Source: a virus (taxonomy: Duplodnaviria; Caudoviricetes). From it: a stretch of 64,000 nucleotides of DNA. Below the pieces are notes generated by a model. That model was not told where the DNA came from, did not search any database, and saw nothing but the letters and a program-made list of their open reading frames with translations. The translations under genes were made by a program, and so were the position numbers. Position 1 is the first letter of the stretch. Every line of letters begins with the position of its first letter. The stretch lies in IMG/VR virus record IMGVR_UViG_3300010352_001202; one strand, 5' to 3'. Positions 17,571-52,074 of this stretch are shown here, in pieces.

Positions 17571-18235
17571 TAGATATAACCCTTATTAATCAGTGCGCCT
17601 CTTCTAAATTCGTCGAGATTAAATTCATTTCTAAGATTAATAGGAATGTATTGTGTATCTAATTCAATAGATACAGCTATATGCGTCGGGACATACGAAT
17701 ATCCGTCGGTTGATCCTGGCGCAAGTGTCACCGGCGATCCGCTATATCCGGCAGTGTTTACCGGAACATAATCGATATTTGCATCATATGTGTAATCAAA
17801 AGATTTCACAATTACCGGTACATTGTTAAACTGATATTCGCCGAGATAATTAAATTTCAGTATAGGTGGCGGAGTACCTGCTTTGTTATACGGATTGATA
17901 CCAAAATATGATTTCGTAACGGAACGGAAGAAATGAAGAACCGACAATAAATATAATGCTTCATCGGTTGTCTGCGCAGTAAATTCAGCAGCAATAGTTA
18001 TAATTTTCGGATACGACCTAACATAAGCATTGTATCCATAGTCTGTGTGAATAAATCCGGTAGAGTCATATTCAGCAGCACTACCCGATGTTACAGATGG
18101 TGTATACGGAAACAGAACACCTCTTGTCGACCACAAAGGATACAAAATATTATTGGGACTATTCGGGCCAAGAACAGACTCACAATTCTGCATACTCTTT
18201 GGCTGCAATCTCGCTCTATAATCTTGTTGTGGCAT
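17570..18235 (-). CDS. Baseplate tail-tube cap/initiator (gp48/gp54-like)
   Basis: GTPPPILKFNYLGEYQFNNVPVIVKSFDY motif of tube-like baseplate proteins; first gene of the operon, with SD AGGAG and late motif at 18255-18262. Confidence 0.6.
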   Translation of the reverse strand: MPQQDYRARLQPKSMQNCESVLGPNSPNNILYPLWSTRGVLFPYTPSVTSGSAAEYDSTGFIHTDYGYNAYVRSYPKIITIAAEFTAQTTDEALYLLSVLHFFRSVTKSYFGINPYNKAGTPPPILKFNYLGEYQFNNVPVIVKSFDYTYDANIDYVPVNTAGYSGSPVTLAPGSTDGYSYVPTHIAVSIELDTQYIPINLRNEFNLDEFRRGALINKGYI

Positions 18236-18254
18236 GAATTTCTCCTAACTTGCT

Positions 18255-18262
18255 TATTTATC
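18255..18262 (-). promoter_or_regulatory. Late promoter GATAAATA for the baseplate operon
   Basis: Same octamer found upstream of at least 15 genes; 20 nt before the ATG at 18235. Confidence 0.75.
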
Positions 18263-18296
18263 ATGAACATAAAGTGGTATGTTAATTGCGGAATTC

Positions 18297-18325
18297 TTGA
18301 CCTATCGTGCAGGCCCTGCTATACT
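18297..18325 (+). promoter_or_regulatory. Sigma70-type promoter TTGACC-N17-TATACT for gp55-gp47-gp46
   Basis: Near-consensus -35/-10 with 17-bp spacer; SD AGGAG at 18339-18343. Confidence 0.75.
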
Positions 18326-22818: not shown

Positions 22819-23164
22819 TCTTAATAAGAATTAGATTCAAGTCTCCCTCATCCTCGACGTCGTGCTGCTGTTGTATCCACGCGTCGAGGATTTTCACGTC
22901 TGCATACCATAGCTGGTGAAACGGAAAATCGGCATACGACTTGCATTCTAGATTCCAATGCTTCCACGACTCCGGTGGGTGAATATCGCCTTTCTTACTT
23001 TGCACTTGTGCGCTGCCGAGTGTTTCTTTACGGAAGTTATTCTTACCACCGACAAAGGCGCCGGAAGATGGAATCCTAATAAATGTTTCTCCATAGGTTT
23101 CAGTTAGAAATTTTGAAACTTCTAATTCCCATGCATTTCCCTTAGCCTTGCTCTTACTGGGCAT
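22598..23164 (-). CDS. Holliday junction resolvase (Hjc-like, PD-(D/E)xK)
   Basis: SKAKGNAWELEV...RIPSSGA...GDI...LECK pattern of Hjc-type phage resolvases. Confidence 0.75.
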   Translation of the reverse strand: MPSKSKAKGNAWELEVSKFLTETYGETFIRIPSSGAFVGGKNNFRKETLGSAQVQSKKGDIHPPESWKHWNLECKSYADFPFHQLWYADVKILDAWIQQQHDVEDEGDLNLILIKISRKEKWVVYPQNLGFLADRYLPYKGWMFVEWDHFWSQQPNRDLVKKYSTEGTDLTDKISHQSSQQVPQTCLP

Positions 23165-23879
23165 CTAAATTTTCCTTTAATATGGCTTCTATATTTTGCC
23201 TATCTTTTTTAATAGCATAGTAAGTTCGTTCTCTTATGCCTGTCACATCTCTTATTTCTTTTCTAGATTTATTTTCGTCTAAGAGACGAAATATAGTGTT
23301 ATAGTATTCTTTTTGGCAGATTATCAAACTTATACTATGTTTTTTTCGTGCCTCACTAATATTTCTACGACCGTTTTCCGATTTAGGCTTTTTTAATGCA
23401 TTTCCTAAATTTTTCTTATGTTCTTTTGTTCGTGTAGTTTTTTTCACACCCCTATTACCGCAACCGTTTTTATTTCCAATTCTTGCCAGACTCATTTTGG
23501 CACGAGTTTCAGGACTTACTATTTGATTCTTATTTGCGATACTAAGTTTCTGTTTGTGCTCTTCAGTCTTAGGAACACCTTTTCGAACTTCGGATAATCT
23601 TTTTTTATGCCATCCGTATAGTTTATTGTTTCTTACTACGCCCTGAGTGGATTGGCACAGCATTAAGACGGCATAAATGAGATTTTTATTATCAGGATAT
23701 ATTTTTACAAGTAGCTGATGTGCTAAGAAATGTTCTTCTGGGGTAAGAATGGCAATGTTATTGTCGTCATCGGTCCCGTTCATACATTTTGGTATAATAT
23801 GATGTCTTTCGGTGTACCCTTCGATATGTCGTGTCTTTGATCTATTGATTAGTTGTTCGTATATTTTTCTATAGTTCAT
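23154..23879 (-). mobile_element. Free-standing HNH homing endonuclease with NUMOD3-like repeats
   Basis: YTERHHIIPKCMNGTDDDNNIAILTPEEHFLAHQLL; basic KTEEHKQKLS/SPETRAKMS repeats; own GATAAATA at 23896-23903; overlaps the resolvase start. Confidence 0.85.
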
Positions 23880-25924: not shown

Positions 25925-26356
25925 TTATTCCCCGGGGACCGGTATACCCTTCTTACCATTTGGTTTACCTTTTGCAGAATTAGAACCAAATATTCTGCCT
26001 TTTCTTTTAGATTCTACACCCTTCGTCGGTGATGGCGTTAGAGCGCATTGTTTTCTTACCCAATCATATTGTCTATTATTCAACCTATTTCCATATCTAT
26101 CGGTTCCCATGAGCATCGCCGCTTTAATCATTGAATGGTTATTTGGGTACATTCTTACTAAACACAAATGAGCAAACAGATGTTCTCTCGGAGTTAATAA
26201 TACAAGATTTGTTTCGTCATTAGTGCCACCAAGTGCCTTAGGTAAAATATGATGGCGTTCATAACAGACATATTTTTTATGATCTTTTTTGTACTTTTGC
26301 CTGCACTCAGATAATGCTCTCAATATGAGTTTATTATATATTCTTCTATAATCCAT
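25925..26356 (-). mobile_element. Free-standing HNH homing endonuclease; C-terminal tail appears frameshifted
   Basis: YERHHILPKALGGTNDETNLVLLTPREHLFAHLCL; KG-xP repeats continue in the +1 frame past the stop. Confidence 0.8.
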
Positions 26357-33733: not shown

Positions 33734-34375
33734 GTGAAAATGGCAAACAAACTGTACGAGTATTTGTCCTTCGACAAAGCACACGTAACACTTCTTGAAG
33801 AAGATAACAAGATGACAGGCGGTAAAGATCTCTGTATGAAAGGGATCTTTATCCAGGGTGACGTAAGGAACCAGAATCAGCGTGTTTATCCTGTTAGAGA
33901 AATTGCCCGCGCCGTTAACTCTATTACAGAAAAATTAGGCACAGGTCAATCAGTAATGGGTGAGCTCGACCATCCGGAAGAGCTTTCTATTAACCTTGAC
34001 CGTGTAAGTCACCTCATCACAGAAATGTGGATGGATGGTGCAGACGGATACGGAAAGTTGAAAATTGTACCAACTCCGATGGGACAAATAGTTCAGACAC
34101 TATTGAAGTCGGGCGCAAAGTTGGGAGTTTCTTCCCGTGGTTCTGGAAATGTAAATGACGATGGTACTGTTTCGGATTTTGAAATTATTACCGTCGACAT
34201 TGTTGCGCAACCAAGCGCACCAAATGCATATCCTAGAACGATATATGAAAGTCTTTTTAACATGAAGGGTGGCCATAGTTTAGTGAATACCGCAAGGGAA
34301 GCACTAACCGAAGCTGCCGCACAAAAACAGCTTGTTAAAGACCTTCAGAGATTTATCAAAGAGTTAAAAATTTAA
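33734..34375 (+). CDS. gp21: Prohead protease, T4 gp21-like
   Basis: GIFIQGDVRNQNQRVYP, GELDHP, RVSH, TPMGQI, LGVSSRGSG, DIVAQPSAPNA. Confidence 0.93.
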   Translation: MKMANKLYEYLSFDKAHVTLLEEDNKMTGGKDLCMKGIFIQGDVRNQNQRVYPVREIARAVNSITEKLGTGQSVMGELDHPEELSINLDRVSHLITEMWMDGADGYGKLKIVPTPMGQIVQTLLKSGAKLGVSSRGSGNVNDDGTVSDFEIITVDIVAQPSAPNAYPRTIYESLFNMKGGHSLVNTAREALTEAAAQKQLVKDLQRFIKELKI

Positions 34376-34387
34376 GGGGAACTCAAG

Positions 34388-35506
34388 ATGGCAAAGAAAA
34401 TTGATGAGATCTTGAGCGAAAGCGTTGGACTGTCTGAAGATGTCCGCAACCAGATCGTTGGTTTGTGGGAATCGAGACTTACCGAAGCTCGTGAAGAAGT
34501 TGCTGCTACACTCCGTGAGGAATTTGCACGCAAGTTTGAACACGACAAGGGAGTCTTAGTTGAATCTATGGACCGTTTCTTAACAGACAAAGTCCGCGTT
34601 GAACTCGAAGAATTCGCCGAAGACAAGAGAAAACTTGTCGCAGAAAGAGTTGCTTACAAGAGCAAGCTCACTGAGCACACAGGAATGTTAAACAAATTCA
34701 TCACAGAAGCTGTAGCCAAGGAAATGAAAGAGTTCTATGCCGAAAAGAAGGCAATGAAGGAAAACTTTTCTAAACTAGAGAACTTCCTGTTGAAGCAACT
34801 TGCCGAAGAAATTCGCGAGTTCCGCATCGACAAGAAATCACTTGTTGAGCAGAAAGTCAAGATGGTTACAGAAGGAAAGCAAAAGCTACAAGAAACAAAG
34901 ACACAGTTTATCAAGCGTGCGGCTCAGATTATCGAGTCTAACATTGAGAAGACATTGCGCTCTGAAATTACTCAATTCAAGGATGACATCCGTGTTGCCC
35001 GTGAAAATGATTTCGGTCGTAAGATTTTTGAAAGCGTAGCAGCTGAATTCATGACTTCGTATTTAAACGAAGGCACAGAGCTTAAGAAGCTTCAAAAGGT
35101 TGTCGAATCTAAGAACAAGGAATTAGCAACACTTAACGAATCTGTTAAGAAGAGCAAGGGCCTTATGGAAGGTTTAGATAGCAAACTAAAAGCAACTCAA
35201 GACCTAGTCGAAAGACAGAAAGTCATGGGAGAGTTACTAGCCCCATTGTCTAAGGACAAGAAAGCTGTAATGAAAGAATTGCTTGAATCGGTACAGACAA
35301 AGAACTTGCAAGGTGCTTACAACAAGTATCTACCAAGCGTACTAAATGAAGCCACAGATCGTAAACCTGCTGCCGCAAAGCCACAGTTGAACGAGGCAAC
35401 ATTGTCTGCCAAGACAGGCGATAGAGCGAGAGTCGCTCAAGAAGAAGTATCGGAAGATACATCGGAACTAAATCATATTTTGTCCTTAGCCGGAATTAGA
35501 AAGTAA
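34388..35506 (+). CDS. gp22: Prohead scaffolding protein, gp22-like
   Basis: Coiled-coil E/K-rich protein between the protease and capsid genes. Confidence 0.8.
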   Translation: MAKKIDEILSESVGLSEDVRNQIVGLWESRLTEAREEVAATLREEFARKFEHDKGVLVESMDRFLTDKVRVELEEFAEDKRKLVAERVAYKSKLTEHTGMLNKFITEAVAKEMKEFYAEKKAMKENFSKLENFLLKQLAEEIREFRIDKKSLVEQKVKMVTEGKQKLQETKTQFIKRAAQIIESNIEKTLRSEITQFKDDIRVARENDFGRKIFESVAAEFMTSYLNEGTELKKLQKVVESKNKELATLNESVKKSKGLMEGLDSKLKATQDLVERQKVMGELLAPLSKDKKAVMKELLESVQTKNLQGAYNKYLPSVLNEATDRKPAAAKPQLNEATLSAKTGDRARVAQEEVSEDTSELNHILSLAGIRK

Positions 35507-35521
35507 TTAGGAGAAACTACA

Positions 35522-36694
35522 ATGGCAACAAAGCTATTTGAATCAAACTGGGGCGCAACAAAAGAAGCCCTTCTAGAAGGCCTTAAGGGAACCCGTCGTC
35601 AAGCAATGGACGTTGTGTTTGAAAACACTCGTAAATACTTGGCAGAATCGGCTACCGCAGGTGCAACACAAGCTGGTAATATCGCAGTTCTTAACAAGGT
35701 AATGCTACCGTTGATCAGACGTGTCATGCCAACAGTTATTGCGAACGAAATCATGGGCGTACAGCCAATGACAGGTCCAGTTGGCCAAATCCACACTTTG
35801 CGTGTTCGTTACGCAAACACTGCTGCTGGTGTAACAGCAGGTACAGAAGCACTTGGTCCATTCGAAATTGCTAAGGCATATTCGGGTAACGAAGTTGCTG
35901 CCGATCCAGCTGCTGCTTCAACAGCACGTCTTGAAGGCGTACCAGGTAACAAGATGAGCATCCAAATCTTGAAAGAAACCGTCGAAGCTAAGACACGTAA
36001 GTTGTCGGCTCGTTGGACTTTCGAGGCTGCACAAGACGCTAATGCCATTCACGGTATTGATATCGAAGCAGAAATCATGCAAGCTCTTGCACAAGAAATC
36101 ACAGTTGAAATCGACCAAGAAATGTTATTCAAGCTAGGTGCTCTAGTACCTGTTGCTCCAACAACATTCAACCAAGCTGCCGTTTCTGGTACAGCTACAT
36201 ACGTTGGTGATGAAATGGCTGCTCTAGCAGTTATGATCAACCAGCAAGCTAACCTTATTGCTGCACGTACACGTCGTGGTGCTGCTAACTGGGCAGTTGT
36301 TTCGCCAACAGCGTTAACAATTCTTCAGTCTGCTACAACATCTTCGTTCGCACGTACAACAGAAGGTACATTCGAAGCACCTACAAACACAAAGTTTGTC
36401 GGTACATTGAATAGCACAATGCGCGTATATGTTAACCAGTATGCAAGCGATGGCGATCCAATCCTTATCGGTTACAAGGGACCTACAGAAACTGACGCAG
36501 CAGCTTACTACTGCCCATACATTCCATTGATGAGCGTTGGTCCTGTTATGGATCCACAGACATTCGAACCAGTCGTATCGTTCATGACACGTTACGGTTA
36601 CCTAGAATTGACAAATACAGCAAACAGCTTCGGTAACGCCGCAGACTATTTGAGCAAGGTTGGAATTGACAGCAGCACTTTGAAATTTTACTGA
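35522..36694 (+). CDS. gp23: Major capsid protein, T4 gp23-like
   Basis: LIRRVMPTVIANEIMGVQPMTGPVGQI, VEAKTRKLSARWTFEAAQD, AYYCPYIPL, FEPVVSFMTRYG. Confidence 0.97.
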   Translation: MATKLFESNWGATKEALLEGLKGTRRQAMDVVFENTRKYLAESATAGATQAGNIAVLNKVMLPLIRRVMPTVIANEIMGVQPMTGPVGQIHTLRVRYANTAAGVTAGTEALGPFEIAKAYSGNEVAADPAAASTARLEGVPGNKMSIQILKETVEAKTRKLSARWTFEAAQDANAIHGIDIEAEIMQALAQEITVEIDQEMLFKLGALVPVAPTTFNQAAVSGTATYVGDEMAALAVMINQQANLIAARTRRGAANWAVVSPTALTILQSATTSSFARTTEGTFEAPTNTKFVGTLNSTMRVYVNQYASDGDPILIGYKGPTETDAAAYYCPYIPLMSVGPVMDPQTFEPVVSFMTRYGYLELTNTANSFGNAADYLSKVGIDSSTLKFY

Positions 36695-36732
36695 TCTGCA
36701 CTGGATCGGTACTTTAAAGAGTACGCAGACAC

Positions 36733-36760
36733 AAAAAAGCCCCTTAATCGGGGCTTTTTT
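36733..36760. terminator. Bidirectional intrinsic terminator after the capsid gene
   Basis: aaaaaagcccc-ttaatc-ggggctttttt; the HNH stop codon lies in the loop. Confidence 0.85.
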
Positions 36761-37397
36761 CTTCTTTGCGTTTTTTGTGTATTTCTTGCATTAATATAGA
36801 TCTTGCTGCCTTCCGTTCTTCCGACCACGATTGCTTAGGTTTACCTTTACGATTTTCAGACATCATCTTTTTTGTTTCTTCAGAATGCGGCGTAAAATGT
36901 GTACCTACACCTTTTCTTCTTTCACTAATTGCTTTTTTATTTTCTTCTGTATGATGCTTTCCCCTAAAACCCGGAGTATTATAATTACCCCCCGGCCTAC
37001 CTTTTGTAGATTCACTAAGTTTTTTCTTAGATTCTGCTGACCATACTTTTCCTATATTAGGTCCAGGCCGACCCTTCATAAACTCGCTCTGGGCTTTACT
37101 AAATTCCTCTTTTAGAAGTTGGTAATCTCTGGCATATACCTTGTATTTTATTCCGTTTCTTTTTACATTGCACATCAACATAAAGGCCTTTGTCATTTGA
37201 GGGTTTCGGTGTATTTTCCACAGCAAATGGTGTGCCACAAAATGTTCTTTTGCGGTTAAAGAAACAATATTAGATTCAATATCGTCTCCTTTTAATGATA
37301 AAGGAACAATATGATGTTGTTCTACATAAATATCTTGGGATAATATCCTATGTTGTGCTTTTGATATTAGTTGATGGTAAACCTTAATATAGTTCAT
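36744..37397 (-). mobile_element. Free-standing HNH homing endonuclease with NUMOD3-like repeats, antisense to the capsid gene
   Basis: YVEQHHIVPLSLKGDDIESNIVSLTAKEHFVAHHLLWKIH; GKHHTEENKKAIS and HSEETKKMMS repeats; GATAAATA at 37411-37404. Confidence 0.85.
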
Positions 37398-37413
37398 AAT
37401 TAATATTTATCAT

Positions 37414-37437
37414 AGTACAACATTGAAATTCTATTAA
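37414..37437 (+). pseudogene. Orphan duplicate of the capsid gene 3' end (STTLKFY*)
   Basis: agt aca aca ttg aaa ttc tat taa versus capsid end agc agc act ttg aaa ttt tac tga (SSTLKFY*, 36671-36694). Confidence 0.75.
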
Positions 37438-37467
37438 TCCGACTCCAGGGTTAGTAAAAAATTCGGA

Positions 37468-37492
37468 GGGGGCCTTAGGGCTCCCTTTTTTT
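37468..37492 (+). terminator. Intrinsic terminator, probably the pre-insertion capsid terminator
   Basis: gggggcc-ttag-ggctccc followed by T7, 30 nt after the orphan capsid end. Confidence 0.75.
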
Positions 37493-37524
37493 ATTTCCGA
37501 TAAATATACGAAACGGAGATTATA

Positions 37525-38688
37525 ATGGCAGTCAATATTAACAATATTACAATAGACGGACTTACTAAAATTTCAAAAGTACCTGAACCAGTAGGTACAT
37601 TAGAAGCAAGTTCATATTCAGTAACATCAGGTGACAGTGTAACATTAACATGGACATCGTCGGAAACTACTACAGTAACCGCAAGCGGTGCATGGAGCGG
37701 ATCTAAAGCATTAAACGGAAGTGTATCATCCGGGGCATTGACAAATGCAAGTAATACATTTGGACTTACATTTATAGGACCCGGTGGATCGACTTATGTT
37801 TCTGTAGAGGTAGCTGTAGTTACACCTGTTGTTGGTGAACAGGTATTTCCTACACCTACAACTACTACATGGGTAGTTCCTGCTGGTGTTACATCTATTT
37901 GTGTTGTTGCAGTGGGCGCCGGCGGTGGTGCTCAATCGGCAGGATCAGTTCACGGTACAGCATCGGGAGGCGGTGGTGCCCTTGCCTATGTAAATAATAT
38001 AGCTGTTACACCAGGCGAAACATTAAACTTATCTGTAGGTAATGGTCCATATTCAGTAACAAGTTCCTCTGCTAGTGTTGGAAATATTCCAGATGGTGGA
38101 CCCACTTGGCTAGCACGCGGAGCAACAAAGCTTGTTCACGCCGGCGGCGGTCACGGCGCTATAGGAACACCGTCGAGTGCATCAGCAGGCGGCGCCGGCG
38201 GATCAGTTATTGTTGGTTCTGGTGGAGCAGGCGGCGCCGGTACAGTTTCGTATTTTGCACGACTCGCCGGCGGCGGTGGCGCCGGCGGATATTCCGGCGC
38301 CGGTGGTTACGGCGGTGGAACATATAGTGCAAGTTCATCGACAGTTCAGGCAGCAGGATCGGGTCACGGTGGCGCCGCCGCCGGCGGTTCTACACATCAG
38401 ACTGCAAACGGTCATTCAGGTGGTGGCGGTGGCACAGGAATATACGGAATAGGTAGCAGTGGTTCTGCTGCAAGTTCTCCATATACAGGTCAGGGCGGCG
38501 CAGGTGGTTCCACGGCAAATAGTACAGGAACAGCCGGCACCACCGGCGGTGCATCTGTTGGTGGATACCCAGGTGGTGGCGCCGGAGCCCCTGTAAGTGA
38601 TAATTTATCAACTTATGGTAATGGTGCCAATGGTGCATTGAGAATTATTTGGGGACCTGGGAGATCATTCCCATCTAACGCAGCATAA
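37525..38688 (+). CDS. Glycine-rich virion adhesin/decoration protein with N-terminal Ig-like domain
   Basis: SVTLTWTS...WSGSK beta-sandwich-like segment, then WVVPAGVTSICVVAVGAGGG...GANGALRIIWG glycine-rich domain; GATAAATA 37499-37506 and SD GGAG. Confidence 0.7.
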   Translation: MAVNINNITIDGLTKISKVPEPVGTLEASSYSVTSGDSVTLTWTSSETTTVTASGAWSGSKALNGSVSSGALTNASNTFGLTFIGPGGSTYVSVEVAVVTPVVGEQVFPTPTTTTWVVPAGVTSICVVAVGAGGGAQSAGSVHGTASGGGGALAYVNNIAVTPGETLNLSVGNGPYSVTSSSASVGNIPDGGPTWLARGATKLVHAGGGHGAIGTPSSASAGGAGGSVIVGSGGAGGAGTVSYFARLAGGGGAGGYSGAGGYGGGTYSASSSTVQAAGSGHGGAAAGGSTHQTANGHSGGGGGTGIYGIGSSGSAASSPYTGQGGAGGSTANSTGTAGTTGGASVGGYPGGGAGAPVSDNLSTYGNGANGALRIIWGPGRSFPSNAA

Positions 38689-51490: not shown

Positions 51491-51504
51491 AAATACTACT
51501 TATG
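51488..51504. promoter_or_regulatory. 17-bp bidirectional late-type promoter element CATAAATACTACTTATG
   Basis: + strand CATAAATA-N6-ATG (HNH); - strand CATAAGTA-N6-ATG (Nudix). Confidence 0.6.
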
Positions 51505-52074
51505 AACTATAGTGAACACTACAATCGCCTAATAGATAGAGCCAAAGTAAGGACTATTTTGCCCGACACCTATATTGAAATACATCATATTGTTCCTAAA
51601 TGTATGGGCGGAAATGATGATTCTGATAATCTCGTGAAGCTATTACCGGAAGAACATTTCGTAGCACATCAGTTACTGGTAAAGATATATCCAACAAATC
51701 CTAAGTTGGTATTTGCGGCAAAAATGATGTCGGTAAATAATTCTACCCAATGCAGGAATAATAAATTATACAAGTGGATAAGATTACGATTATCTTCTGT
51801 TATGTCAGCAATGGTTCGTACCGAAGAACATAAAAAGAACATATCTTTGTCCATGATAGGTAAATCATATACGAAAGGTATTCCGAAAACTGATTTACAT
51901 AAATTAAATATGTCAATAGCAAAGAAAAATAAACCTAAGAATAAAGAACACCGTAATAAACTATCTAGTATTCTAATGGAATTGCCTCCACTGGAATGCC
52001 CACATTGTGGCATTAAGGGTAAAAACGGCCCAATGCGTCGATGGCATTTCGATAATTGTAAGAATTACTCGTAA
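51502..52074 (+). mobile_element. Free-standing HNH homing endonuclease with C-terminal CPHC zinc motif
   Basis: YIEIHHIVPKCMGGNDDSDNLVKLLPEEHFVAHQLLVKIYP; RTEEHKKNIS repeats; CPHCG...RWHFDNC. Confidence 0.85.

Follow-up and report, generated by a model that had tools for sequence, protein, structure and literature searches.

A probable gene-end-replacing homing element at the major capsid gene of a jumbo myovirus

We analysed a stretch of 64,000 nucleotides (nt) from a jumbo myovirus (IMG/VR record IMGVR_UViG_3300010352_001202; the whole stretch is called the window below) around the place where the gene for the major capsid protein meets an antisense HNH endonuclease gene. An earlier note, made from the letters of the window alone, had pointed out that the end of the capsid gene occurs twice here, once on either side of the nuclease gene. 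It proposed that a nuclease cassette had entered the last codons of the capsid gene, bringing a replacement end with it and leaving the original end behind. The locus is laid out as follows, with the strand in brackets.

35522-36694 (+): major capsid protein gene, Gp23 type, 390 amino acids (aa), intact (PF07068, E 3e-96)
36671-36694 (+): resident, functional capsid end, SSTLKFY and stop, of the TTT TAC TGA type (AGC AGC ACT TTG AAA TTT TAC TGA)
36692-36724 (+): two small hairpins (36692-36708 and 36709-36724) of the resident 3' untranslated region (3'UTR), from fold prediction
36733-36760 (both strands): bidirectional intrinsic terminator T1 (hairpin and T-run), common to the converging capsid and HNH genes
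36744-37397 (-): free-standing HNH-NUMOD3 homing endonuclease gene, T4 Mob-like, 217 aa, intact (PHROG 655, PF07460)
37398-37413 (-): spacer from the HNH start codon to the remnant, with GATAAATA at 37411-37404 on the HNH strand
37414-37437 (+): stranded remnant of the original capsid end, STTLKFY and stop (AGT ACA ACA TTG AAA TTC TAT TAA)
37438-37495 (+): original 3'UTR and terminator T2 (stem 37465-37488, 10 pairs), from a terminator scan and fold, collinear with the empty alleles L001, L049, L108 and L110
37499-37527 (+): late-promoter-like GATAAATA (37499), Shine-Dalgarno (SD) sequence and start of the next gene; right edge of the empty-allele homology

Both capsid ends lie exactly where the earlier note had placed them. 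The gene closes with SSTLKFY and its stop codon at 36671-36694, followed by T1 at 36733-36760, and the second end, STTLKFY in different codons, stands at 37414-37437 with a terminator of its own, T2, at 37465-37488. The frame of this second end starts sixteen bases beyond the start codon of the HNH gene, and its homology is secure from 37417 on. In a six-frame scan of the window these were the only two sites at which the heptapeptide and stop were matched at six or more of the seven residues, and no match was found in 200 shuffled windows of 64 kb. The two ends are homologous and not alike by chance, because empty alleles, in which a capsid gene carries the distal type of end and no HNH gene, exist elsewhere.

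Two such empty alleles were found by a pattern scan of metagenome contigs (relatives are cited here by locus labels beginning with L). L108 (Ga0307497_10009617) is identical to window positions 37417-37464 at 48/48 nt, and L110 (Ga0190271_10317448) to positions 37420-37464 at 45/45 nt. The identical stretch comprises the last 15-18 coding bases, the stop codon and 27 nt of 3'UTR; a homologous terminator and promoter follow, and homology with both alleles stops at about 37531. In further HNH-free relatives (L001, L049/L105, L104, L107, L015 and L024) the capsid gene continues without a break into distal-type sequence, the layout in L001, L049, L015 and L024 being gene end, TCCGACTCCAGG-type 3'UTR, terminator and GATAAATA. 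The alignment with HNH-free relatives that the earlier note had called for thus gave the predicted outcome, with capsid genes running into sequence of the 37414-37492 type. It follows from these alleles that the junction falls within the capsid open reading frame (ORF), 18-24 nt short of its end, that the resident end and T1 travel with the HNH gene, and that the old end has been left stranded. Entry within the last capsid codons and the stranding of the original end are therefore both borne out, the latter by the collinearity of the remnant with L108 and L110. What is stranded just past the HNH start codon is the former end together with its 3'UTR, T2 and the late promoter of the next gene.

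The last codons of the capsid gene are supplied by the cassette, and the protein is kept whole by this gene end of the unit's own, as had been expected: the ORF is intact at 390 aa, and its product is 95-98% identical in amino acids to those of about 64 IMG/VR loci (approximately 91-98% in the capsid-protein scan described below). The idea of a recoded synonymous end stands in part. The codons do differ, at 5 of the 21 overlapping nt, but this is no more than ordinary allele divergence, which in the population amounts to about 76-80% identity over the last 60 nt; over the last 126 nt and the stop, the resident end and L108 are identical at 96/129 positions. Because the recoding equals normal allele divergence, the replacement end is best read as the end of a foreign allele and not as a designed recoding. 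Across 54 capsid alleles, third-position identity reaches its minimum in codons 381-390 (0.42 against a gene mean of 0.67), a diversity signal that rests on few sites because the replaced tract is short; the protein in these codons is conserved apart from S/T/A and D/N polymorphisms.

The gene between the two ends encodes a protein that matches PHROG 655, 'homing endonuclease', with an E-value of 1.5e-47. With annotated Mob-like homing endonucleases of T4-like phages it shares 39% identity, and it carries a NUMOD3 domain (PF07460, residues 146-180, E 9e-8, above the gathering score) C-terminal to the nuclease domain. The HNH catalytic motif (H28 H29 N43 H52 H56) is invariant among 26 homologues, and PF01844 is on record for the relatives P0037 and P0049. 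An AlphaFold2 model of the protein has a mean predicted local distance difference test (pLDDT) score of 80, and of at least 89 over residues 1-100. Foldseek with the whole model gave no match below E 0.001, and neither a PDB sequence search nor NCBIfam gave a match for the protein. A nuclease borne by an intron or intein was considered and rejected, the gene being antisense to the capsid gene and outside the capsid ORF, and no Rfam family, introns included, reached its threshold in 36400-37700. The 15 distinct HNH proteins of the clade are 50-82% identical, and their genes share 57-80% nt identity, or 42-67% at third positions, with all ORFs intact at 212-218 aa; to judge from this divergence, the HNH genes are old and constrained.

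At its 3' end the HNH gene is interlocked with T1. This terminator has 11 pairs with A6/T6 arms and folds as well on one strand as on the other, with z of about -4.2 to -4.8, and the HNH stop codon (TAA) is located in its loop. In every lineage the HNH C-terminus (..K-S/A/G-P/A-D/E/K and stop) is encoded by the A-tract and stem of T1. Since these C-termini are always T1-encoded and covary with T1, the terminator is an ancestral part of the cassette. The hairpin at 36709-36724, GUACUU-UAAA-GAGUAC, is situated between the capsid stop and T1. The second 3'UTR hairpin is kept in relatives with other, mutually complementary stems (for example ATTAC...GTAAT in L014, L005 and L002), and a hairpin at the 36709-36724 position is seen among relatives both with and without the HNH gene.

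At the other end of the gene, GATAAATA on the HNH strand is followed after only 6 nt by the ATG, and an SD sequence is lacking, which suggests a leaderless HNH transcript. The GATAAATA spacer is common to the lineages of the window, L036, L039, L116 and L118 and is absent in those of L007, L014 and L019; lineages without it have an SD-like AAGAG, CAGAG or AAGGG from the reverse complement of the capsid remnant. The T4-late-promoter-like GATAAATA occurs at 15 other sites of the window besides 37404-37411, and stands 15-25 nt ahead of many genes. Matches to a sigma-70-like promoter around the HNH start were discounted, being no more than an AT-rich background allows.

How widely this arrangement occurs was read from an IMG/VR capsid-protein scan, in which 80 of 287 capsid loci were kept, about 64 of them at 91-98% aa identity. 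Of the 49 core loci whose downstream flank reached 800 nt or more, 9 had an HNH homologue in the same place and orientation; of the 11 outgroup loci, none had. In the protein database there are 52 HNH homologues at 52% identity or more; in all ten contexts examined the gene is convergent with a 390-aa Gp23 gene, and the same is true of the nine IMG/VR loci. In IMG/VR, identity falls from 52% to 37% past the capsid-adjacent loci, and homologues at 37% or less lie elsewhere. The exact HNH of the window is carried in the samples SRR5007244, SRR4236661, JGI 3300025867 and ERZ27257449. On this distribution, the clade is specific to the end of the Gp23 gene. All 15 distinct HNH genes converge with the capsid gene, and in 14 of these 15 lineages the order is full-length capsid gene, HNH gene, remnant. 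The remnant core AAR TTC TAT T lies 10-28 nt from the HNH ATG at 14/15 HNH loci and has been lost in L126. Among GenBank phages there was no close relative: the best matches were capsid bodies at 71-73% nt identity (PA5oct-like, Phosso and Rak2-like), and the cassette was in none of them.

All variation among remnants is synonymous when read in the dead capsid frame (Leu CTT/CTG/CTA/TTA/TTG and Lys AAG/AAA). These codon variants are those of live alleles, and such synonymous-only variation fits capture from different live alleles. Over at least 48 nt, the remnants of the window and of L118 with their 3'UTRs are identical or nearly so to empty alleles of the present day. In L116 and L117, which have one and the same HNH protein and 99-100% identity over 1.9 kb, 5/10 nt differ exactly at the junction of HNH gene and remnant. 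The junction could be a local hot spot, produced by conversion of short patches or by repeated rounds of cutting and repair.

Decayed copies are present as well. In L011/L013 the catalytic half of the nuclease is gone and HNH residues of about 110-216 are left; L011 (IMGVR_UViG_3300009709_000001), with its truncated HNH gene, has a resident end of the TTC TAT target type. In L005 (IMGVR_UViG_3300045971_000577) a stub of about 75 nt from the HNH 3' end abuts the late promoter. These are the only clear decay products; L040, L043/L045 and L060 were considered as footprints of HNH loss and left as ambiguous, L040 aligning best to a distal-type end with a small hairpin. Empty, occupied, truncated and almost-deleted states are thus all present in the phage population.

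We consider it probable that the locus holds a homing element that works by replacing the end of the capsid gene. The mobile unit would consist of the last few codons of a capsid allele, the 3'UTR, T1 and the antisense HNH-NUMOD3 gene. In mixed infections the nuclease would cut unit-free capsid alleles near the junction, and repair would copy the unit from the donor. Of the homology arms, the left one would be the capsid body and the right one the module of remnant, 3'UTR, terminator and promoter, roughly 100 nt long. The stranded fragment would be the recipient's own former end, which would explain why remnants look 'fresh'. T1 would stop both converging transcripts, so that expression of the capsid gene should be undisturbed.

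It is possible that the resident end, the new 3'UTR or both make the occupied allele resistant to the nuclease. TTC TAT is found in 14/14 remnants against 12/51 live ends of HNH-free loci, and resident ends have TTT in 13/15, a pattern that is suggestive of immunity. A change of TTC to TTT, or of TAT to TAC, was rejected as the immunising rule, the pattern being broken by L120 and L126. Resistance may instead come from the 3'UTR that was replaced, or from sequence upstream of the junction.

Several observations weigh against a homing element of this kind. L120 and L126 have intact HNH genes together with a resident TTC TAT end, so that no simple rule of resistant and sensitive ends holds. The invariance of TTC TAT could also stem from a single origin and from selection for HNH expression signals instead of target preference. 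Some HNH-free loci (L043/L045, L060, L040 and L002) have T1-like terminators and the small hairpin too, so that these parts are not peculiar to the cassette. As regards the beta-beta-alpha-metal fold, the Foldseek matches of best probability are HNH domains (Cas8-HNH, Cas9 HNH and the pyocin AP41 DNase), and these are weak and local, covering 41-63 residues. Recombination in the population is so heavy that its capsid alleles are related as a star, at 86-89% nt identity, and HNH-bearing capsids do not cluster; their excess similarity is weak (+0.038 identity) and limited to the last 60 nt, for which reason the left boundary of the cassette is not placeable. With a co-conversion signal this weak in the capsid body and recombination this heavy, repeated homing is hard to separate from one old gain followed by vertical descent with frequent recombination.

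Such an ancient insertion, with many losses since, an end to homing and a remnant kept as leader, ribosome-binding site or promoter of the HNH gene, would account for the weak co-conversion signal and for a TTC TAT core that is invariant though the HNH genes are near saturation at third positions. It would also suit the remnants of L007, L014, L019, L034 and L037, in which the reverse complement of the Thr-Leu codons forms the SD-like AAGAG, CAGAG or AAGGG, 6-8 nt before the ATG. We nevertheless hold it unlikely. The near or full identity of the window and L118 remnants to present-day empty alleles, the purely synonymous variation of remnants in a dead frame, the catalytic residues kept in 15/15 nuclease ORFs and the L116/L117 difference exactly at the junction tell against it. 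The nuclease might instead be an ordinary intergenic, free-standing homing endonuclease that cuts elsewhere, the duplicate having come from unrelated illegitimate recombination, in which case the junction would say nothing about the target. The T4 enzymes SegF, SegG and MobE do cut at a distance from their own genes (PMC2988022, PMC2790892; also general knowledge), and the remnant is short. This account is very improbable given that 14 of 15 diverged lineages have the same junction, next to the HNH start and within the last 5-8 codons of the capsid gene, and that empty alleles are exactly collinear with the remnant side.

It might finally be asked whether the second STTLKFY is a chance match, or whether the HNH protein is not selfish and serves packaging together with the terminase. 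HK97-like phages have HNH genes near their head genes that are known as packaging factors, and the repeat is short; beyond this nothing speaks for either idea. Set against them are the 200 shuffles without a match, the homology of the remnant to empty alleles, the absence of the gene from 40/49 close relatives and all outgroups, and a protein of the Mob/NUMOD3 type. By shuffles, empty alleles and distribution this explanation is effectively refuted, and we give it next to no credence.

The capsid gene of the window is preceded by two further head genes.

33734-34375: prohead protease gene (PF03420)
34388-35506: scaffold-like gene

Downstream, the next gene (37525-38688) encodes a Gly-rich PF21722/PHROG 4474 protein, and its GC content rises to 0.64, the surroundings being at about 0.42. 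Among phages that are otherwise much alike (L001-L133), the gene following the capsid module is hypervariable, and the homology of relatives stops at the late promoter. Elsewhere in the 64 kb there are further Mob-like HNH genes at 23154-23879 (-), 25925-26356 (-) and 51502-52074 (+), and an HNH fragment at approximately 18133-18297 (-), which are 31-46% identical to the capsid-adjacent HNH protein. When the flanks of the genes at 23154-23879 and 25925-26356 were read, without comparison to relatives, no obvious duplicated gene end was seen.

Homing endonucleases of phages are usually described as passengers of introns or inteins or as intergenic, free-standing genes, and the capsid locus would add a third route, into an essential gene by replacement of its end. 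The natural series is unusually complete: besides empty alleles it has 15 occupied lineages that have diverged, one truncated copy and one that is almost wholly deleted. It predicts the target site to about 20 nt at the last codons of the capsid gene and gives matched candidate substrates, sensitive and resistant. The locus bears on how selfish nucleases may shape mosaic boundaries at phage structural modules, on why recombination has hot spots at the 3' end of the capsid gene and in the gene after it, and on natural counterparts of engineered rescue-type gene drives. More tentatively, as a conjecture that we would not yet back and yet take seriously, these genes may form a family of actively homing phage nucleases that act as natural 'home-and-rescue' drives at the capsid gene. 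They would swap in a foreign end and terminator, strand the recipient's end and reuse it as right arm, as leader or ribosome-binding site and perhaps, for autoregulation, as an operator half-site, and their homing would drive fast synonymous turnover of the 3' end. If this is true, phage homing endonucleases would have in it a general means of entering coding sequence that needs neither intron nor intein.

It is common in phages for a homing endonuclease gene to lie next to a capsid gene (PMC10448857). In the phage literature searched, with subscription papers outside its scope, no description was found of a nuclease lodged in the last codons of a gene with a replacement end and a stranded remnant. 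The closest phage systems are the T4 enzymes MobA-E and SegA-G, which belong to the same HNH and NUMOD3 family, stand free between phage genes and are patchily distributed (PMC2988022, PMC2790892). Like these, the present unit would be expected to move by intronless homing, with double-strand-break repair co-converting its flanks, whereas the T4 genes are described as inserted between genes and as cutting a neighbour. The engineered home-and-rescue and cleave-and-rescue drives likewise target an essential gene with a nuclease and carry a recoded rescue copy (PMC7968924; bioRxiv 10.1101/2019.12.13.876169). They differ in being synthetic, Cas9-based and built for insects, and in that the resistance of their rescue copy is designed, whereas for the phage it is inferred.

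The strategy of replacing a gene end is not new in biology, as WHO elements and fungal mORFs do likewise. The mORFs of fungal mitochondria were first seen in Allomyces macrogynus atp6 and are also found in Glomus atp6, atp9, cox2 and nad3 (PMC3630166). There, too, an endonuclease ORF and a foreign, largely synonymous C-terminal copy have been inserted, and the native end lies downstream, in some cases unexpressed. The mORF nucleases are of the LAGLIDADG or GIY-YIG type, usually co-oriented with the host gene and often fused to it in frame, whereas that of the phage is HNH and convergent, with a terminator between nuclease and host gene. The WHO elements at FBA1 in Torulaspora and Lachancea yeasts provide the case in which the mechanism has been documented experimentally (Coughlan et al. 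2020, eLife, PMC7282813), with allele-specific cleavage shown for WHO6. WHO nucleases are intein-like LAGLIDADG-zinc-finger proteins that act in a eukaryotic nucleus and replace about 400 nt. The phage unit, in contrast, has an antisense HNH-NUMOD3 gene in a jumbo phage, shares a bidirectional terminator with its host gene and replaces about 6-8 codons and the 3'UTR; tandem clusters of old elements were not seen. The architecture of the two matches, and the signs of turnover at the phage locus (the synonymous variation and freshness of remnants, the variable junction, the decay stages and the diversity of the capsid 3' end) are all as the WHO model predicts. In both, the endonuclease gene adjoins a full-length essential gene whose 3' end it replaces, the former end lies downstream, non-expressed and, for the phage as a proposed role, as a homology arm, diversity is raised in the 3' part of the host gene, and elements decay to pseudogenes. 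[quoted passage not shown]

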